Source: an uncultured archaeon
GTDB taxonomy: Archaea > Asgardarchaeota > Thorarchaeia > Thorarchaeales > Thorarchaeaceae
NCBI GenBank assembly: GCA_964648855.1
Contig: CAZYLT010000007.1
Coordinates: forward strand, 1-32,000
Length of the DNA stretch: 32,000 nucleotides
Direction: 5' to 3'
Position 1 is the first letter of the stretch. The number at the start of each line of letters is the position of its first letter. The position numbers and the translations under genes are program-made. The notes under the pieces are model-generated. The model saw only the letters and a list, made by a program, of their open reading frames with translations, was not told where the DNA came from and did not search any database. Positions 15,603 through 21,768 of this stretch are shown piece by piece.

Positions 15603-16688
15603 ATGAATAATGATTTCTCCTCTTGCACTGTCGGATTCATGTGGGACTCTGATTTAGAAACATTCGATTTTGGAGCCCGTCATCCGGTAAGAGTGGGACG
15701 TTTTCAGATGGTACACGACTTCTTACTTGAATCCGGCATTCTTGATGCCTCTCGTATCGAAATCATAAAACCCGAACCCGTATCAGACGACCTTCTCCGG
15801 AAGGCACATTCTGAGGAGTACATTCAGAAAGTCAGGCAAATCTCGAAGACTGGTGAGGGCGATATAGACATTGATACTCCTGGATTCGTGGGTATCTTAG
15901 AACATTCTCTCCTAACGTCTGGAACAATAACCTCGGGGATCAGAGCTATGCATGGGGGCAGGATTGACCATTTCTACTCACCAACTGGCGGCTTTCACCA
16001 TGCCTTCTACAACCATGGGGGCGGCTTCTGTATCTTTAATGACGTTGCCATGGGCACCATTCTGCTGAAAGAACTTGGTTATGAGCGGATTCTAATTGCA
16101 GATTTTGATGTCCATCATGGAAATGGAACTCAGGATTATTTCTACGAAGATCCTGCCGTCATGACAATTTCATTTCACGAAGATTCCGAGTGGATGTATC
16201 CTCATGATGGCTTCATAGAAGATATAGGTGCAGATTCTGGTCGAGGGTATAACATCAATATGCCTTTCCCGATGGATGCGGGTGATGATGTATATCGCTA
16301 TGCCTTTGATGAGTTGGTTCCACCACTGGTTCACCTCTTTGAGCCGGACTTTATTCTCTTTCTTCCCAGCTTCGATGCACACTACCGAGATCCTCTCGCT
16401 CATCTAAACCTTACATTCAAGACTATCCACTATGTTGCAGAATGGTTCCACAGATTCTCTCATCGCTACTGCGATGGTTGCTTGGGAGTTGTCTCTGGTG
16501 GTGGATATAATCCTGAAATTTTCAAAATAGGTGCGAAAGTAATTATCTCGTTATTATCTGGTCTTGACGTAGGAATTCCGGAGGAGGAAGCTCCTTTTCG
16601 AGACGATGAAGAAACTTGGGAAATCACTAGAGAGAATGTAAAGAGAGTCAAAGATTGCGTCTTTCCAAAGTTATCATTGGAATATTGA
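15603..16688 (+). CDS. Zn-dependent HDAC/AcuC-family deacetylase
   Basis: FDFGARHP, GGFHHA, GFC, DFDVHHGNGTQ, FDAH..DPL and GGGY are all intact. Start placed at the ATG at 15603. Confidence 0.92.
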   Translation: MNNDFSSCTVGFMWDSDLETFDFGARHPVRVGRFQMVHDFLLESGILDASRIEIIKPEPVSDDLLRKAHSEEYIQKVRQISKTGEGDIDIDTPGFVGILEHSLLTSGTITSGIRAMHGGRIDHFYSPTGGFHHAFYNHGGGFCIFNDVAMGTILLKELGYERILIADFDVHHGNGTQDYFYEDPAVMTISFHEDSEWMYPHDGFIEDIGADSGRGYNINMPFPMDAGDDVYRYAFDELVPPLVHLFEPDFILFLPSFDAHYRDPLAHLNLTFKTIHYVAEWFHRFSHRYCDGCLGVVSGGGYNPEIFKIGAKVIISLLSGLDVGIPEEEAPFRDDEETWEITRENVKRVKDCVFPKLSLEY

Positions 16689-16780
16689 CTACTTTGCCGT
16701 CTTCCGCCTGTTGTTGGTTTTTGTACCGAAGAGAAGGAGTTAATTGTCAGGGTACGACACTGGCAAGACCGGGTGTAAGC

Positions 16781-18136
16781 ATGGAAATTTTGGTTTCATT
16801 ATGTAAGCAAGATGCCTGTGATAGGGAATGCATAGAGGCGTGCAGAAGTATCCACAGCGAAGACGCTCCTCTTTCATTCTCCATTACCAAGGGATATCCT
16901 GTGATTAATGAAGCGAAATGCACCGAATGCCTGAGCTGCATCCGGTCATGTCCTCATGGTGCCATCACAAGCATTCACCAACGCGAGCAAGAAACGAGTG
17001 AGAAGAAAAGCTCGCGGACATCTGTAGCTCAGAAGAAACCCTATGAAGTAACAGAGGAATACTCCCGTTTTTCTGAATCCAGTATGATTTTTGCGAGGGT
17101 TAGAAATGACGCGAACTTTGAGTACTACGGAAAGGACGAGTGGTATGGCGCCGAGGCCATGATTGAAAGGAATATTGACGGATATGGGAGATTCGAACAT
17201 GAATTAGCTGTCGCTAACTGGCACCTGTATAATAAAAGAACACACATCACTGGAAGTCCCCAAGAAGCAACTGTAAAACCAACAAGAAATCGGTTAATAC
17301 AAGCAACGTCACAGACGCTAACTCTCGCCATCAAGCGCGCTGCACGATTTATAGGTGCAGATCTTGTGGGCATTGCTCAGCTTGATAGAAGATGGCTCTA
17401 TTCAGAAAATCGAAAAGGAAATCCGTATGAAATCCCTGAAGCCTTCGATCGTGCAATTGTTATGGCTATTGAAATGGACTATGACTCCATAGCCACATCT
17501 CCATCGTTCACCAGCTCAGCGGCTACTGCACTTGGCTACTCAAAGATGGCTTTTCTGGAAATTGAACTTCTAGCCTTCATTCGAAGACTTGGCTACTCAG
17601 CAATTTCCTGTGGCAACGATGTTGGTTTAAGCGTTCCATTAGCTATTGATGCTGGACTCGGAGGATATGGCAGGCATGGTCTTCTGATAACGAAAAAATA
17701 CGGTCCAAGGGTCAGACTTGCAAAGGTACTCACCGATATGCCCTTAGAGCCCGACCAACCGGACACCAAATTTGTGCAGTCTGTCTTAAGATTCTGTGAA
17801 GTGTGTGAGAAGTGTGCAGTCCACTGTCCTTCGCAATCAATTCCATTTGGACCTGAAAGGACCATGAGAGGGAAAACCAAATCAAACAATCCCGGGGTCA
17901 AGAAATGGTATATCAACCCGGAAACATGCTATGGTTTTTGGGTTGAAAACGGCTCTGAATGTTCCAATTGCCTTCGTTCCTGTCCGTATAACAAAGAAGA
18001 TGGCATATTACACAGGGTAATCCTTTGGTTTGTAGAAAAGATGCCTTGGATGAATCGTTTGATTGTAAAGATGGATGATATTGTTGGTTATGGTAAACAG
18101 AAGCCCCCTTCAGCCCCCTGGAGCAAATATGACTAA
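16781..18136 (+). CDS. rdhA: reductive dehalogenase-like (RdhA) protein with an extra N-terminal 2x[4Fe-4S] domain
   Basis: AARFIGADLVGIA, AIDAGLGGYGRHGLLIT..YGPRVRLAKVLTDMPL, FCxxCxxCxxxCP and C..FW......CxxCxxxCPY. No RRxFxK Tat motif. Start placed at MEILVSLC. Confidence 0.82.
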   Translation: MEILVSLCKQDACDRECIEACRSIHSEDAPLSFSITKGYPVINEAKCTECLSCIRSCPHGAITSIHQREQETSEKKSSRTSVAQKKPYEVTEEYSRFSESSMIFARVRNDANFEYYGKDEWYGAEAMIERNIDGYGRFEHELAVANWHLYNKRTHITGSPQEATVKPTRNRLIQATSQTLTLAIKRAARFIGADLVGIAQLDRRWLYSENRKGNPYEIPEAFDRAIVMAIEMDYDSIATSPSFTSSAATALGYSKMAFLEIELLAFIRRLGYSAISCGNDVGLSVPLAIDAGLGGYGRHGLLITKKYGPRVRLAKVLTDMPLEPDQPDTKFVQSVLRFCEVCEKCAVHCPSQSIPFGPERTMRGKTKSNNPGVKKWYINPETCYGFWVENGSECSNCLRSCPYNKEDGILHRVILWFVEKMPWMNRLIVKMDDIVGYGKQKPPSAPWSKYD

Positions 18137-19753: not shown

Positions 19754-20047
19754 CTAATCGGCCTTTCTTTCGATTCGTTCGTATAAGCCTTCGTAGAAGT
19801 CTTTCTTCTTTGTCTTTCCTTTGTTAATACTGAAGAAACTGGTATCTATTTTGTAGAGCTTCCTCTTCAGTTTCTTGTAACTCGGCATCCCATTCTCATC
19901 AATCATTTTGTCAAATACATTAGAAACCGCTTCTGGAAAGTCATCAATGTATTCGCAGCGGTTAATTTGAATGTGGAAGAGAGTGCTCCTTAGAATATCA
20001 TCTTTTGTTACGCTTAATTCCGCCATTTCTGGTCCCATTATTGCCAA
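19754..20047 (-). CDS. hypothetical protein (charged, 97 aa or shorter)
   Basis: Plausible composition; fills the gap between genes, with an AT-rich promoter-like region upstream. Confidence 0.6.
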   Translation of the reverse strand: MAIMGPEMAELSVTKDDILRSTLFHIQINRCEYIDDFPEAVSNVFDKMIDENGMPSYKKLKRKLYKIDTSFFSINKGKTKKKDFYEGLYERIERKAD

Positions 20048-20205: not shown

Positions 20206-20904
20206 GTGATGAGAATCGCTTCAATCATTGATGTAAGTCTTGTTGATGTCCCTGGCATTCCTGTTACGGTCATCTTTACGGCTGGATGTAACTTTGATTG
20301 CCCATACTGTCAAAATGCAAACATAATTCCCCTCGATTCTGGAACGGAAATGTCTGTTCTCGAGGTAGTTTCCGGCGCGAGTGGCTACCTAGTGGATGGC
20401 TACTGCATAACCGGTGGAGAACCTACAATTCAAAAGGAATTGCCTGACCTCCTTAAGGCGCTGAGCAAAACAGGGGACTTTCATATCAATCTAAACTCTC
20501 AGGGGTCCGTTCCATCGGTGCTTGAGGAGTGCATTCCATACCTCGATTCAGTTTGGCTTGACGTAAAGGCTTCGCCTTCGAGATATGAAGAGGTCTGTAG
20601 AACAAAACATAACTCTTGGCCCAATGTAAAGAAATCAATCGAGATGCTAGTAAAATCCGATGTCGAACTGTGGCCAAGAACTACTTATGCACAGAATCTA
20701 CTAAGCCCCCAGGATATTGCAGACATTATAGATAACCTTGAACAGATAGGATTTGAAGGGCGCTACGTTATTCAAGACTATGTACCATCATCTGGGGTTC
20801 GAGAAGGGGAAGCACCAACTCTGGAACGCCCCAAGAAGGAGGACCTAGCAGAGATCGTGAGTACCCAATCTGGGAAAATTGAAGTGGACCTACAGTTTCG
20901 CTAA
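20206..20904 (+). CDS. radical SAM glycyl-radical activating enzyme, anaerobic RNR activase (NrdG)-like
   Basis: SLVDVPG, FTAGCNFDCPYCQN (CxxxCxxC), ITGGEPT, LDVK and RTT. Confidence 0.82.
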   Translation: MMRIASIIDVSLVDVPGIPVTVIFTAGCNFDCPYCQNANIIPLDSGTEMSVLEVVSGASGYLVDGYCITGGEPTIQKELPDLLKALSKTGDFHINLNSQGSVPSVLEECIPYLDSVWLDVKASPSRYEEVCRTKHNSWPNVKKSIEMLVKSDVELWPRTTYAQNLLSPQDIADIIDNLEQIGFEGRYVIQDYVPSSGVREGEAPTLERPKKEDLAEIVSTQSGKIEVDLQFR

Positions 20905-20952
20905 TCGGTGGCTATTTGCCTTGAATCGACCATATCTATGCCAGTTGAATAC

Positions 20953-20961
20953 TTTTATAAA
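20953..20961 (+). promoter_or_regulatory. putative TATA box for psmA
   Basis: TTTTATAAA about 70 bp upstream of the ATG at 21031. Confidence 0.5.
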
Positions 20962-21030
20962 CTGGCTTCATGTGTCGTTCTACTGACCATATCGTTTTCG
21001 GGTCCCATAATTGCAGAGAGTAGAGTTATC

Positions 21031-21768
21031 ATGTTTCCAAATCAATCGATGGGCTACGACAGAGCTATCACGGTTTTCAGTCCTGAGGGTCGTTTGTACC
21101 AAGTTGAATATGCGACAGAGGCTGTTAGGCATGGTCCTTTGGCAGTTGGAGTAAAGGCAACAAACGGTGTGGTGCTCGCAGGAGAGAAGCGAACTCCAAA
21201 CAAGCTCATTGACCTTTCAACTCTCAAGAAGATTCTCTTGATTGATGATCATGTTGGTACTGCTATTGCAGGACTACACGCTGATGCTCGCAAGCTTATT
21301 GACCAAGCTCGAGTGAGATCTCAGGTAAATCGACTATCATATGACGAGCCCATCTCTATTCAATCCCTAGTGGTTGATATCTGCGATACAAAACAGATGC
21401 ATACCCAGTACGGTGGAGTACGTCCCTTTGGTGTATCACTGCTTGTTGCAGGAGTTGATGATTTTGGTCCTCAATTGTATTCTACCGATCCATCAGGTTC
21501 ATTTTGGGGCTGGAAAGCACACGCGATTGGAAAGGATGCAGATATCGTAAGGGATTTCTTTGAGAAAGAACTCGCAGGCAAGAAGTTGCCGGATTTGGAT
21601 GGAGCGATTGACTTGGCACTTCGGGGCATTCGTCAATCTGAGGCTAGGTCCGAAGAGGAAGACGAAGAAGATGAAACCATTGACATAGGTGTGGTCGATG
21701 CTGAAGAAAAGCAATTCAGGATTCTCTCTCGTGATGAAGTCAAAGCATTGACATCCAAGAAGGAATAG
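21031..21768 (+). CDS. psmA: archaeal 20S proteasome alpha subunit
   Basis: GYDRAITVFSPEGRLYQVEYA signature, TQYGGVRPFGVSLL and TDPSG. The true start is MFPNQSMG at 21031. Confidence 0.97.
   Translation: MFPNQSMGYDRAITVFSPEGRLYQVEYATEAVRHGPLAVGVKATNGVVLAGEKRTPNKLIDLSTLKKILLIDDHVGTAIAGLHADARKLIDQARVRSQVNRLSYDEPISIQSLVVDICDTKQMHTQYGGVRPFGVSLLVAGVDDFGPQLYSTDPSGSFWGWKAHAIGKDADIVRDFFEKELAGKKLPDLDGAIDLALRGIRQSEARSEEEDEEDETIDIGVVDAEEKQFRILSRDEVKALTSKKE

Follow-up and report, generated by a model that had tools for sequence, protein, structure and literature searches.

The gene at 16781-18136 (+) of the window, the whole 32,000-nucleotide stretch of Asgard archaeal DNA analysed here, encodes a protein whose core is a reductive dehalogenase (RdhA), with QueG excluded, and whose N-terminal iron-sulfur domain is, on sequence and profile comparison, closest to the Fe-S domain of ABCE1 among the ferredoxin domains tested. 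We consider it probable (roughly 0.7) that the protein is a soluble cytoplasmic cobamide RdhA in which the N-terminal domain acts as a built-in ferredoxin feeding organohalide dehalogenation, as opposed to Tat/RdhB respiration; the predicted soluble, cytoplasmic state belongs to this joint reading and shares its probability. The gene is a single-copy orthologue carried by most Thorarchaeota.

Gene structure and domain layout

The gene is complete and encodes 451 amino acids followed by a stop codon. Its start, the ATG at 16781, is backed by homologues, most of the 120 relatives listed having M-x6-C at the same place, and GGGTG, a possible Shine-Dalgarno-like site inferred from sequence only, lies 5 nt upstream of this ATG (16771-16775, +). 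A longer frame, with TTG at 16655 as its start, overlaps with the gene upstream; it was rejected because the hydrophobic 42-aa extension that it would add is unconserved. No RNA runs are listed for the stretch, and the runs that carry it are DNA from one microbial-mat study only.

The N-terminal two-cluster, ABCE1/RLI-like Fe-S domain (hereafter N-domain; aa 1-66; 16781-16978, +), with eight invariant Cys and matches to NCBIfam RLI and ABCE1, is followed by a Lys/Ser-rich linker (aa 67-86; 16979-17038, +), which is predicted to be disordered (pLDDT below 50 at residues 67-81) and is not conserved in sequence, and by the RdhA core (aa 87-451; 17039-18133, +), which includes the corrinoid-binding and Fe-S parts and matches PceA in phmmer and Foldseek searches. 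The translation of the N-domain contains two Cys motifs, C8-x4-C13-x3-C17-x3-C21 (16802-16843, +) and C47-x2-C50-x2-C53-x3-C57-P58 (16919-16954, +), separated by 25 residues, which is exactly the spacing read in the earlier note, as are the segments GYPVINEAKC and CPHGAI; Pfam Fer4, one of the models by which that note proposed to check the domain, matches aa 40-63, over the second motif, at E 2.2e-6. The core contributes C339-x2-C342-x2-C345-x3-C349-P350 (17795-17830, +), with matches to Pfam Fer4_7 and Fer4_16 at aa 339-404, and C383...C394-x2-C397-x3-C401-P402 (17927-17986, +), both consisting of invariant columns. All 16 Cys, eight in the N-domain and eight in the core, show no variation across an alignment of 75 family members and fit four [4Fe-4S] clusters, the number that had been proposed.

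The core belongs to the RdhA family

The protein scores 220.7 bits with the RdhA model TIGR02486, above the family threshold of 160.35, and 51.6 bits with the QueG model TIGR00276, below the threshold of 200; the Pfam Dehalogenase model PF13486 gives 15.9 bits, under its cut-off of 24.3. In phmmer comparisons, the core is similar to PceA (8q4h, E 6.4e-59; 4uqu, E 3.9e-57), to the catabolic NpRdhA (E 4e-29) and to QueG (E 4.5e-6). The AF2 model of the full-length protein (pLDDT 89.3) yields the same ranking in Foldseek, with PceA (8q4h) at E 7e-29 and TM of about 0.63-0.67 to PceA chains, NpRdhA at about 1e-21, and QueG at about 1e-7 and TM of about 0.32. The core is thus an RdhA and not a QueG, the latter being an outcome that the earlier note had entertained: both the family scores and the fold place it nearer RdhA.

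The Tyr, Asn and Arg that PceA has in its active site are retained as Y253, N279 and R312, all invariant or nearly so across the 75 sequences. In the alignment to 4uqu, Tyr253 (17537-17539, +), invariant in the 75, corresponds to PceA Tyr246, the proposed proton donor (PMC6737245); Asn279 (17615-17617, +), conserved in the same alignment, corresponds to Asn272; and Arg312 (17714-17716, +), conserved in at least 90% of the 75, corresponds to Arg305.

PceA of Sulfurospirillum multivorans and the Desulfitobacterium RDH complex (4UQU/4UR0, 8Q4H) thus have in common with the window protein the core fold, the sequence family, both Fe-S motifs and the Tyr/Asn/Arg set. However, PceA is a respiratory enzyme, exported by Tat and anchored by PceB, whereas the window protein has neither a Tat signal nor an anchor gene and carries an added N-terminal two-cluster domain. 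The catabolic enzymes NpRdhA and BhbA (4RAS, 6ZXU) are cytoplasmic and, like the window protein, combine an RdhA core with the absence of Tat and rdhB, but are farther from it than PceA, and NpRdhA, at about 700 aa, has a different N-terminal extension. Members of the catabolic class are typically NADPH-dependent and may have C-terminal FAD/NAD-binding and 2Fe-2S domains (PMC6737245, PMC12219181); the window protein has instead a ferredoxin-type domain fused at its N-terminus, and the Pfam scan detected no flavin or NAD(P)H domain in it. QueG (5D08, 5D6S) belongs to the same superfamily and binds cobalamin and two [4Fe-4S] clusters, but its similarity to the window protein is weak. A Tat-less, four-cluster RdhA homologue is accordingly the annotation that fits, although some public sources name relatives QueG.

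Predicted location

The first 80 residues contain no RR Tat motif, the N-terminal residues being those of the Fe-S domain. No 19-residue segment of the protein reaches a Kyte-Doolittle hydropathy of 1.6, the threshold used for a membrane helix, and no small ORF with at least two hydrophobic helices, as expected of an rdhB-like gene, occurs at 12-23 kb of the window. These motif, hydropathy and ORF scans bear out the claim that the Tat signal and the rdhB anchor are absent. The further proposal that the Fe-S domain replaces the Tat signal holds for its position in the protein, but not otherwise: the nearest non-Asgard relatives found, proteins of about 390-410 aa, have neither a Tat signal nor the N-domain.

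Distribution and genomic context

The matches listed include 120 homologues, each about 450 aa long, that share 52-82% identity with the window protein over 100% of its length, and public-database relatives are named “reductive dehalogenase [Candidatus Thorarchaeota archaeon]”. The window gene is the sole RdhA in its genome. A homologue was found in 88 of 151 sampled Asgard genomes, as a single copy in 86 of the 88, and was not found in the other 63, including 7 of the 26 from the window's own family, so that the gene is dispensable. In a quick IQ-TREE tree (rows L026, L037, L039 and L044 were omitted as partial matches), the sampled Asgard RdhAs all fall into a single clade (SH-aLRT 96).

Synteny is kept across 26 Thorarchaeota loci. 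As neighbours, the window gene has an HDAC-like gene and a PAS histidine kinase, the latter located 3' of RdhA in 16 of the 26 loci. This kinase was considered as a dedicated regulator and rejected because the whole region, including proteasome alpha, is syntenic and the neighbours of RdhA differ in other Asgard families. No conserved redox-partner gene adjoins RdhA, and the neighbours vary between Asgard families.

The N-terminal domain and its relationship to ABCE1

The earlier note had equated the Cys spacing of the N-domain with that of the ABCE1/Rli1 domain, and the 25 sampled Asgard ABCE1 agree, showing C-x4-C-x3-C-x3-C and, most commonly, a Cys4-Cys5 gap of 25; among RdhA N-domains, 19 of 25 sequences likewise have a gap of 25 residues and the other six have one of 24. 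Across all six translated frames of the 3.1-Mb genome, the window gene has the single instance of the complete eight-Cys pattern, fewer than chance would produce, and the first Cys motif is present, among the long ORFs of the same genome, only in the window RdhA and ABCE1. The window protein is not itself an ABCE1: the NCBIfam RLI model NF009945 matches aa 7-69 only (E 2e-7), with 30.1 bits against a family cut-off of 469, and the true ABCE1 of this genome sits elsewhere (G000:C10:33451-35256).

Profile comparisons extend the resemblance to the entire domain. The ABCE1 structure chain 6tmf_d matches the N-domain as a single sequence at E 1.8e-6 and in the N-domain profile at 50.1 bits over profile positions 3-66; in the PDB search with this profile, the whole domain was matched in one stretch by ABCE1 chains only (41-50 bits). 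On the window's own genome, the RLI model ranks the N-domain first after ABCE1, at 32.4 bits with all others at or below 23.7, and the N-domain profile ranks ABCE1 first after itself, at 46.7 bits against 32.1 for the next protein. An hhalign comparison with Asgard ABCE1 gave 99.4% probability, score 104 and E 1.9e-21 over 67 nearly gap-free columns, against a score of 57 over 38 columns, confined to the second half of the domain, for the one control family, PorD. A better fit of the N-domain to generic ferredoxins than to RLI, the outcome that would have spoken for an ordinary ferredoxin, was thus not seen among the domains tested, either in the reciprocal profile searches or in hhalign. The Fe-S domain of ABCE1 (6TMF, 3BK7, 3J15) shares with the N-domain its extreme N-terminal position and its spacing, and is its best full-length profile match in both directions; it precedes twin ABC ATPases, whereas the N-domain precedes the RdhA core. 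The N-domain differs from it in being acidic, a charge like that of ferredoxins (mean net charge -4.0, compared with +2.6 for the ABCE1 domain), in lacking Pro after the fourth Cys and in falling under Pfam RLI significance.

The last two of these differences bear on the alternative that the likeness reflects no specific kinship, the N-domain being an ordinary 2x[4Fe-4S] ferredoxin domain that shares the Cys spacing by chance. The Pfam RLI scan (PF04068) that had been suggested as a check returned no match to the window protein at E<=1 and matched only 3 of 25 Thorarchaeota N-domains (best E 0.17), leaving 22 of the 25 without a match; Pro directly follows the fourth Cys in 24 of 25 ABCE1 and in none of the 25 Thorarchaeota N-domains, and identity to the ABCE1 domain of the same genome is 27%. 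Structure and language-model comparisons are compatible with this alternative: although the N-domain is confidently modelled within the full-length protein (pLDDT 88-93), it gives a poor model when folded alone (pLDDT 63), for which the Foldseek matches, led by ABCE1 at E 0.53 with AprB next, are all non-significant, and the ESM Atlas neighbours of aa 1-70 mix generic Fer4 and Fer4_RLI clusters, all below 0.9, and serve as a lead only. However, PF04068 is not a clean test for a cluster domain because it also matches the cluster-less N-terminus of Tsr3, and the N-domains of RdhAs from other Asgard families retain the CP and reach or approach the Pfam RLI cut-off of 23 bits (26.7 for P0228, which passes, 22.3 and 19.4). 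Moreover, the N-domain and ABCE1 are mutual best matches within the genome, by margins of about 9-15 bits, and their alignment is full-length with the same commonest gap, the PorD control reaching about half the score. On balance, chance resemblance is unlikely.

A stronger proposition is that the N-domain truly descends from the Fe-S domain of ABCE1, having been recruited early in Asgard evolution onto a Tat-less RdhA and kept as an electron-transfer module; we regard this as a tentative scenario, at somewhat less than even odds. Among the 150 matches listed for the N-domain profile against 1.84 billion representatives, those that cover the domain in a single stretch are RdhAs or N-terminal RdhA fragments only, in a list dominated by polyferredoxins that sum half-domain matches and reaching down to about 62 bits, with ABCE1 scoring about 50 or less. 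When small ferredoxins of this type standing alone were sought at lengths of 39-126 aa, the only matches were three sequences that are probably RdhA fragments and three generic ferredoxins of 57 aa. Nothing in these data favours the suggestion that the fusion is a clue to the origin of the RLI domain itself: RdhAs with the N-domain were seen in part of Asgard only, whereas 30 of 31 sampled Asgard genomes and 4 of 4 archaeal control genomes yielded an ABCE1, and Asgard ABCE1 gives the N-domain no higher a score than ABCE1 of Thermococcus does. A ribosome- or RNA-directed role taken over from ABCE1 was also considered and is disfavoured, the N-domain being acidic where that of ABCE1 is basic and the core retaining the dehalogenase active site.

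Proposed function and alternatives

Under the preferred reading of a cytoplasmic dehalogenase with a built-in ferredoxin, the N-domain would hold two [4Fe-4S] clusters in addition to those of the core and would receive low-potential electrons from a cytoplasmic donor, such as reduced ferredoxin, a 2-oxoacid:ferredoxin oxidoreductase or a hydrogenase. The electrons would then pass from the N-domain by way of both core clusters to the cobamide, and the latter would remove the halogen from an organohalide, the likely substrates being bromo-, iodo- or chlorophenolics that occur naturally in sediments and mats. The corrinoid would need to be scavenged, in favour of which we count that neither CobS nor CbiB was detected in the genome, itself 94.6% complete. 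Physiologically, the reaction might serve as an electron sink or as a detoxifying or catabolic step, and not as respiration of the Tat-exported, RdhB-anchored kind.

The enzyme could nevertheless be respiratory if the N-terminal ferredoxin domain docked on a membrane complex from the cytoplasmic side, linking the enzyme to the quinone pool or a hydrogenase, with energy conserved. Consistent with this possibility, the core is nearer to respiratory PceA (E ~1e-58) than to catabolic NpRdhA, and Heimdallarchaeia RdhAs with N-terminal ferredoxin domains were assigned to the quinone-dependent prototypical group, for which electrons from the quinone pool were suggested (Han et al. 2025, PMC12219181). 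Against it are the lack of a Tat signal, a membrane helix or a nearby rdhB in the window, the failure of Manoharan et al. to find B-protein genes in Thor or Loki genomes (PMC6737245), the absence of conserved membrane-complex genes beside RdhA, and the short, soluble-looking, Tat-less nearest relatives outside Asgard; together, these observations make a respiratory role very unlikely. Another concern is whether the enzyme dehalogenates at all or is instead an RdhA-fold cobamide reductase acting on some other natural substrate, in a housekeeping reduction akin in kind to the epoxide reduction by QueG. The occurrence of the gene as a single copy in 88 of 151 Asgard genomes, at a fixed chromosomal position in Thorarchaeota, is unlike the multi-copy, island-borne rdhA of organohalide respirers, and, such a single-copy, syntenic, widely kept gene being unusual for xenobiotic dehalogenases, the natural substrate may be a non-organohalide. 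Yet the PceA Tyr, Asn and Arg are all kept and the similarity to QueG is weak; the dispensability of the gene also argues against housekeeping, as does, at second hand, a published list that counts a heterologously expressed Thorarchaeota RDase as active on organohalides. The relevant entry of that source (PMC13101508, 2026, citing Ng & Silver 2024) names A0A5C9E7E1, expressed in E. coli, which may differ from the window orthologue. An activity other than dehalogenation is, in our assessment, quite unlikely.

Relationship to previous work and implications

The earlier note did not know this fusion, which in fact was already on record: Manoharan et al. 2019, mBio (PMC6737245), describe thorarchaeotal RDases with an additional 4Fe-4S domain at the N-terminus. 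The RDases of Thor- and Lokiarchaeota described in that paper, which belong to the same protein family as the window gene, lack Tat and rdhB, conserve Tyr246, Arg305 and Asn272 as well as synteny, and have PceA as their closest characterised enzyme, and corrinoid synthesis was found to be incomplete. N-terminal ferredoxin domains were subsequently described in Heimdallarchaeia RdhAs (Han et al. 2025, PMC12219181). The family, the architecture and the likely non-respiratory role were thus published in 2019, and the window gene adds nothing new there. That study labels the extra domain as a single pfam00037 4Fe-4S domain, whereas eight invariant Cys, enough for two clusters, in an ABCE1-like arrangement are seen here. 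In the literature searched, no paper dealing with both a reductive dehalogenase and ABCE1 was found, so that the ABCE1 kinship of the N-domain, as suggested by sequence comparison, is apparently the only new point, and a modest annotation. The identity of the extra domain, as a full two-cluster module nearest to ABCE1 among those tested, may merit a short note.

Elsewhere, the RLI-type domain is associated with translation. Should the kinship be real, these RdhAs would be the sole case in this analysis of an RLI-type di-cluster domain within an ordinary redox enzyme, and the fusion would provide an easily assayed setting for the redox behaviour of RLI clusters. It would thereby offer a handle on RLI-type clusters as electron carriers and bear on why ABCE1 has Fe-S clusters.

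The reductive dehalogenase core

The gene at 16781-18136 on the forward strand encodes a 451-aa protein of the reductive dehalogenase (RdhA) family that consists of an N-terminal domain (aa 1-66; hereafter, N-domain), a linker and the RdhA core. The supported start codon is the ATG at 16781, which is preceded 5 nt upstream by GGGTG and matches the M-x6-C start found at the same place in most of the 120 listed homologs. An alternative TTG start at 16655 was rejected: it overlaps the end of the upstream histone deacetylase-like gene and adds a hydrophobic 42-aa extension that is not conserved.

By sequence and modeled fold, the core is that of an RdhA, as the earlier note proposed, and not that of the epoxyqueuosine reductase QueG. 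The NCBIfam RDH model TIGR02486 matches the protein with 220.7 bits (cut-off 160.35), whereas the QueG model, with 51.6 bits, remains far below its cut-off of 200. The best PDB sequence matches are two enzymes of the respiratory PceA type (E 6.4e-59 and 3.9e-57), with the catabolic NpRdhA (E 4e-29) and QueG (E 4.5e-6) more distant. The full-length AlphaFold2 model, obtained from an alignment of 75 family members (mean pLDDT 89.3, pTM 0.82), shows disorder in the linker only (residues 67-81), and in Foldseek searches is most similar to PceA (E 7e-29, TM ~0.63-0.67 to PceA chains), followed by NpRdhA (~1e-21) and QueG (~1e-7, TM ~0.32). In the sequence alignment, Y253, N279 and R312 lie opposite PceA Tyr246, Asn272 and Arg305, which Manoharan et al. 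(2019; PMC6737245) name as conserved active-site residues. Y253 and N279 are invariant among the 75 sequences, as are eight core cysteines (339, 342, 345, 349, 383, 394, 397 and 401), and R312 is kept in at least 90%.

The Tat signal and the rdhB anchor are both absent, as already noticed: the protein contains neither an RR motif nor a 19-residue stretch with Kyte-Doolittle hydropathy of 1.6 or higher, and between positions 12 and 23 kb of the window, no short ORF has the two or more hydrophobic helices expected of an rdhB-like anchor.

The N-domain and the Fe-S domain of ABCE1

The cysteine spacing of the N-domain, C8-x4-C13-x3-C17-x3-C21-x25-C47-x2-C50-x2-C53-x3-C57-P, is exactly that described before, and each of the eight cysteines is fully conserved, both in 25 Thorarchaeota sequences and across the alignment of 75. 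Several independent sequence comparisons point to the RLI-type Fe-S domain of the ribosome-recycling ATPase ABCE1/Rli1 as the closest likeness among the domains tested. Outside RDH and QueG, the best NCBIfam match is the RLI model (aa 7-69 aligned to model positions 11-73, E 2e-7). A single-sequence search yields archaeal ABCE1 (6tmf_d) with E 1.8e-6, the next Fe-S protein being HdrA (E 0.01). When the RLI model is run against the 3.1-Mb genome of the organism, no Fe-S domain other than that of ABCE1 itself scores higher than the RdhA N-domain (32.4 bits; others 23.7 or less), and reciprocally, a profile built from 25 Thorarchaeota N-domains retrieves ABCE1 next after itself (46.7 bits, positions 3-68), followed by the C-terminal ferredoxin domain of a TPP enzyme (32.1 bits). 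Among PDB chains, a single match spanning the entire profile is seen only with ABCE1 (41-50 bits). Polyferredoxins rank higher solely because as many as a dozen half-domain matches, none above 20 bits, are added together. Alignment of the N-domain with 27 Asgard ABCE1 N-domains by hhalign (99.4%, E 1.9e-21) gives a score of 104 over 67 nearly gap-free columns, compared with 57 (38 columns) for the ferredoxin control family PorD, which itself scores 76 against ABCE1. Both RdhA N-domains and ABCE1 most often have 25 residues between Cys4 and Cys5, and among long ORFs in the six-frame translation of the genome, the first Cys motif is confined to this gene and ABCE1.

The Pfam RLI scan proposed in the earlier note gave a different outcome: PF04068 (Fer4_RLI) does not match the window protein, and among the 25 Thorarchaeota N-domains, there are only 3 matches, all non-significant. 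Furthermore, ABCE1 has Pro after the fourth Cys in 24 of 25 sequences, in contrast to none of the Thorarchaeota N-domains. Because N-domains from other Asgard families retain this CP and score higher with PF04068 (26.7, 22.3 and 19.4 bits, the first exceeding the cut-off of 23), the Thorarchaeota branch looks like the more diverged form. PF04068 is also not a clean test, since in these genomes it matches the N-terminus of a ~190-aa Tsr3-like protein that lacks cluster cysteines. Such a protein of 189 aa, with the motifs CDPKKCT and LDCSW, is encoded in the organism's own genome (L119:339-908, contig G000:C6) and outscores ABCE1 there (44.8 versus 43.1 bits); similar matching ORFs of ~150-220 aa occur in many of 100 sampled Asgard genomes. 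Folded alone, the N-domain yields a low-confidence model, for which the fold search ranks ABCE1 first, non-significantly. The domains also differ in charge: with a mean net charge of -4.0, the RdhA N-domain resembles the acidic electron-carrier ferredoxins, whereas the ABCE1 domain is basic (+2.6).

ABCE1 of the same genome (L001:1501-1740; G000:C10:33451-35256) has CSGAGMC in place of the second cluster motif C-x2-C-x2-C. The Cys6 position is occupied by E, A, T or V in 11 of 25 sampled Asgard ABCE1 proteins and interrupted by an insertion in two more (loci L045-L072), which suggests that many of them carry a [3Fe-4S] or non-Cys-ligated cluster.

Genomic neighborhood

Upstream, the gene borders on an HDAC-family gene, and downstream on a gene for a PAS histidine kinase. 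Beyond the kinase come a conserved 97-aa ORF, a radical SAM gene and the gene of the proteasome alpha subunit. This neighborhood is strongly syntenic in Thorarchaeota (26 loci); the neighbors differ in other Asgard families, so that no partner gene can be inferred. The 97-aa ORF (19754-20047, reverse strand), located between the kinase and radical SAM genes, has no Pfam match, yet 19 of the 26 loci have a homolog in the corresponding place. Within 20206-21768 (forward strand), 3 nt separate the end of the 232-aa radical SAM gene from the listed ORF of the proteasome alpha subunit, a pair kept in 17-18 Thorarchaeota loci; because the proteasome ORF begins 49 aa before the Pfam domain, its true start is probably farther downstream.

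Distribution and history

RdhA homologs (E 1e-30 or better) are present in 88 of 151 sampled genomes of the phylum. All but two of the 88 have a single copy, as does the organism studied here. Forms with the N-domain occur in its family and three others, and short forms (~370-408 aa) in several further families. The core was placed in a quickly computed maximum-likelihood tree, with sampling biased by pattern-based retrieval. There, the sampled Asgard sequences all fall into a single clade (SH-aLRT 96) that excludes the sampled Bathyarchaeota, Nitrospinota, Chloroflexi and other relatives, and at least two gains or losses of the N-domain are required. The closest relatives found outside Asgard (35-41% identity, ~390-410 aa) lack the Tat signal, membrane helix and N-domain, with a Tat motif in only one, from Gracilibacter; thus, as far as this sample shows, the N-domain was added to an already Tat-less RdhA type. 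Among the matches listed in sequence searches (for other enzymes, down to about 62 bits), there was neither a stand-alone N-domain nor another enzyme containing it, and the suggestion that it holds a clue to the origin of the RLI domain found no support.

Two Asgard orthologs with in-frame stop codons, G005:C51:3823-5169 (one TAA) and G114:C7:33260-34627 (TGA and TAA), may be pseudogenes or sequencing errors. Three metagenome proteins of 71-105 aa (P0165, P0123 and P0137) have the N-domain fused straight to the enzyme's C-terminal tail and are probably mis-assembled copies or copies with an internal deletion. A 637-aa Thermodesulfobacteriota homolog (L027:7470-9380), without a Tat signal or Fe-S N-domain, carries a different N-terminal fusion of ~175 aa with a phosphoribosyltransferase-like AILIDDGLASG motif.

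Relation to previous work and proposed mechanism

The fusion, which was not known to the author of the earlier note, was described by Manoharan et al. (PMC6737245), who reported an extra N-terminal 4Fe-4S domain in thorarchaeotal RdhAs as an unobserved architecture, along with the lack of Tat signals and B-protein genes, PceA as the closest characterized enzyme, conserved synteny and incomplete corrinoid synthesis. N-terminal 4Fe-4S ferredoxin domains have also been reported in Heimdallarchaeia RdhA-like proteins (Han et al. 2025; PMC12219181). No paper in the literature searched mentions reductive dehalogenases and ABCE1 together; the apparent ABCE1 kinship of the N-domain is the one modest addition to a known architecture. 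The original observation was right and its interpretation largely so, save for the RLI-origin idea.

Li et al. 2026 (PMC13101508) list RDases from Bathyarchaeota, Lokiarchaeota and Thorarchaeota (A0A5C9E7E1) among those active after heterologous expression, and credit Ng & Silver 2024 with identifying 36 RDases that dechlorinate PCE and/or deiodinate 2,4,6-triiodophenol. Searches of the 94.6%-complete genome detected neither CobS nor CbiB, which fits corrinoid scavenging by this organism.

Sequence and model together show an RdhA core with an intact active site and two cluster motifs, a flexible linker and an N-terminal domain that is acidic, resembles that of ABCE1 and carries eight invariant cysteines; features for export or anchoring are absent. 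In such a protein, electrons from a cytoplasmic low-potential donor would enter at the N-domain and pass along a wire of four [4Fe-4S] clusters, from the N-domain through the core clusters to the cobamide, which would reductively remove halogen from natural organohalides. For the organism, the enzyme may serve as an electron sink, or catalyze a detoxifying or catabolic step.
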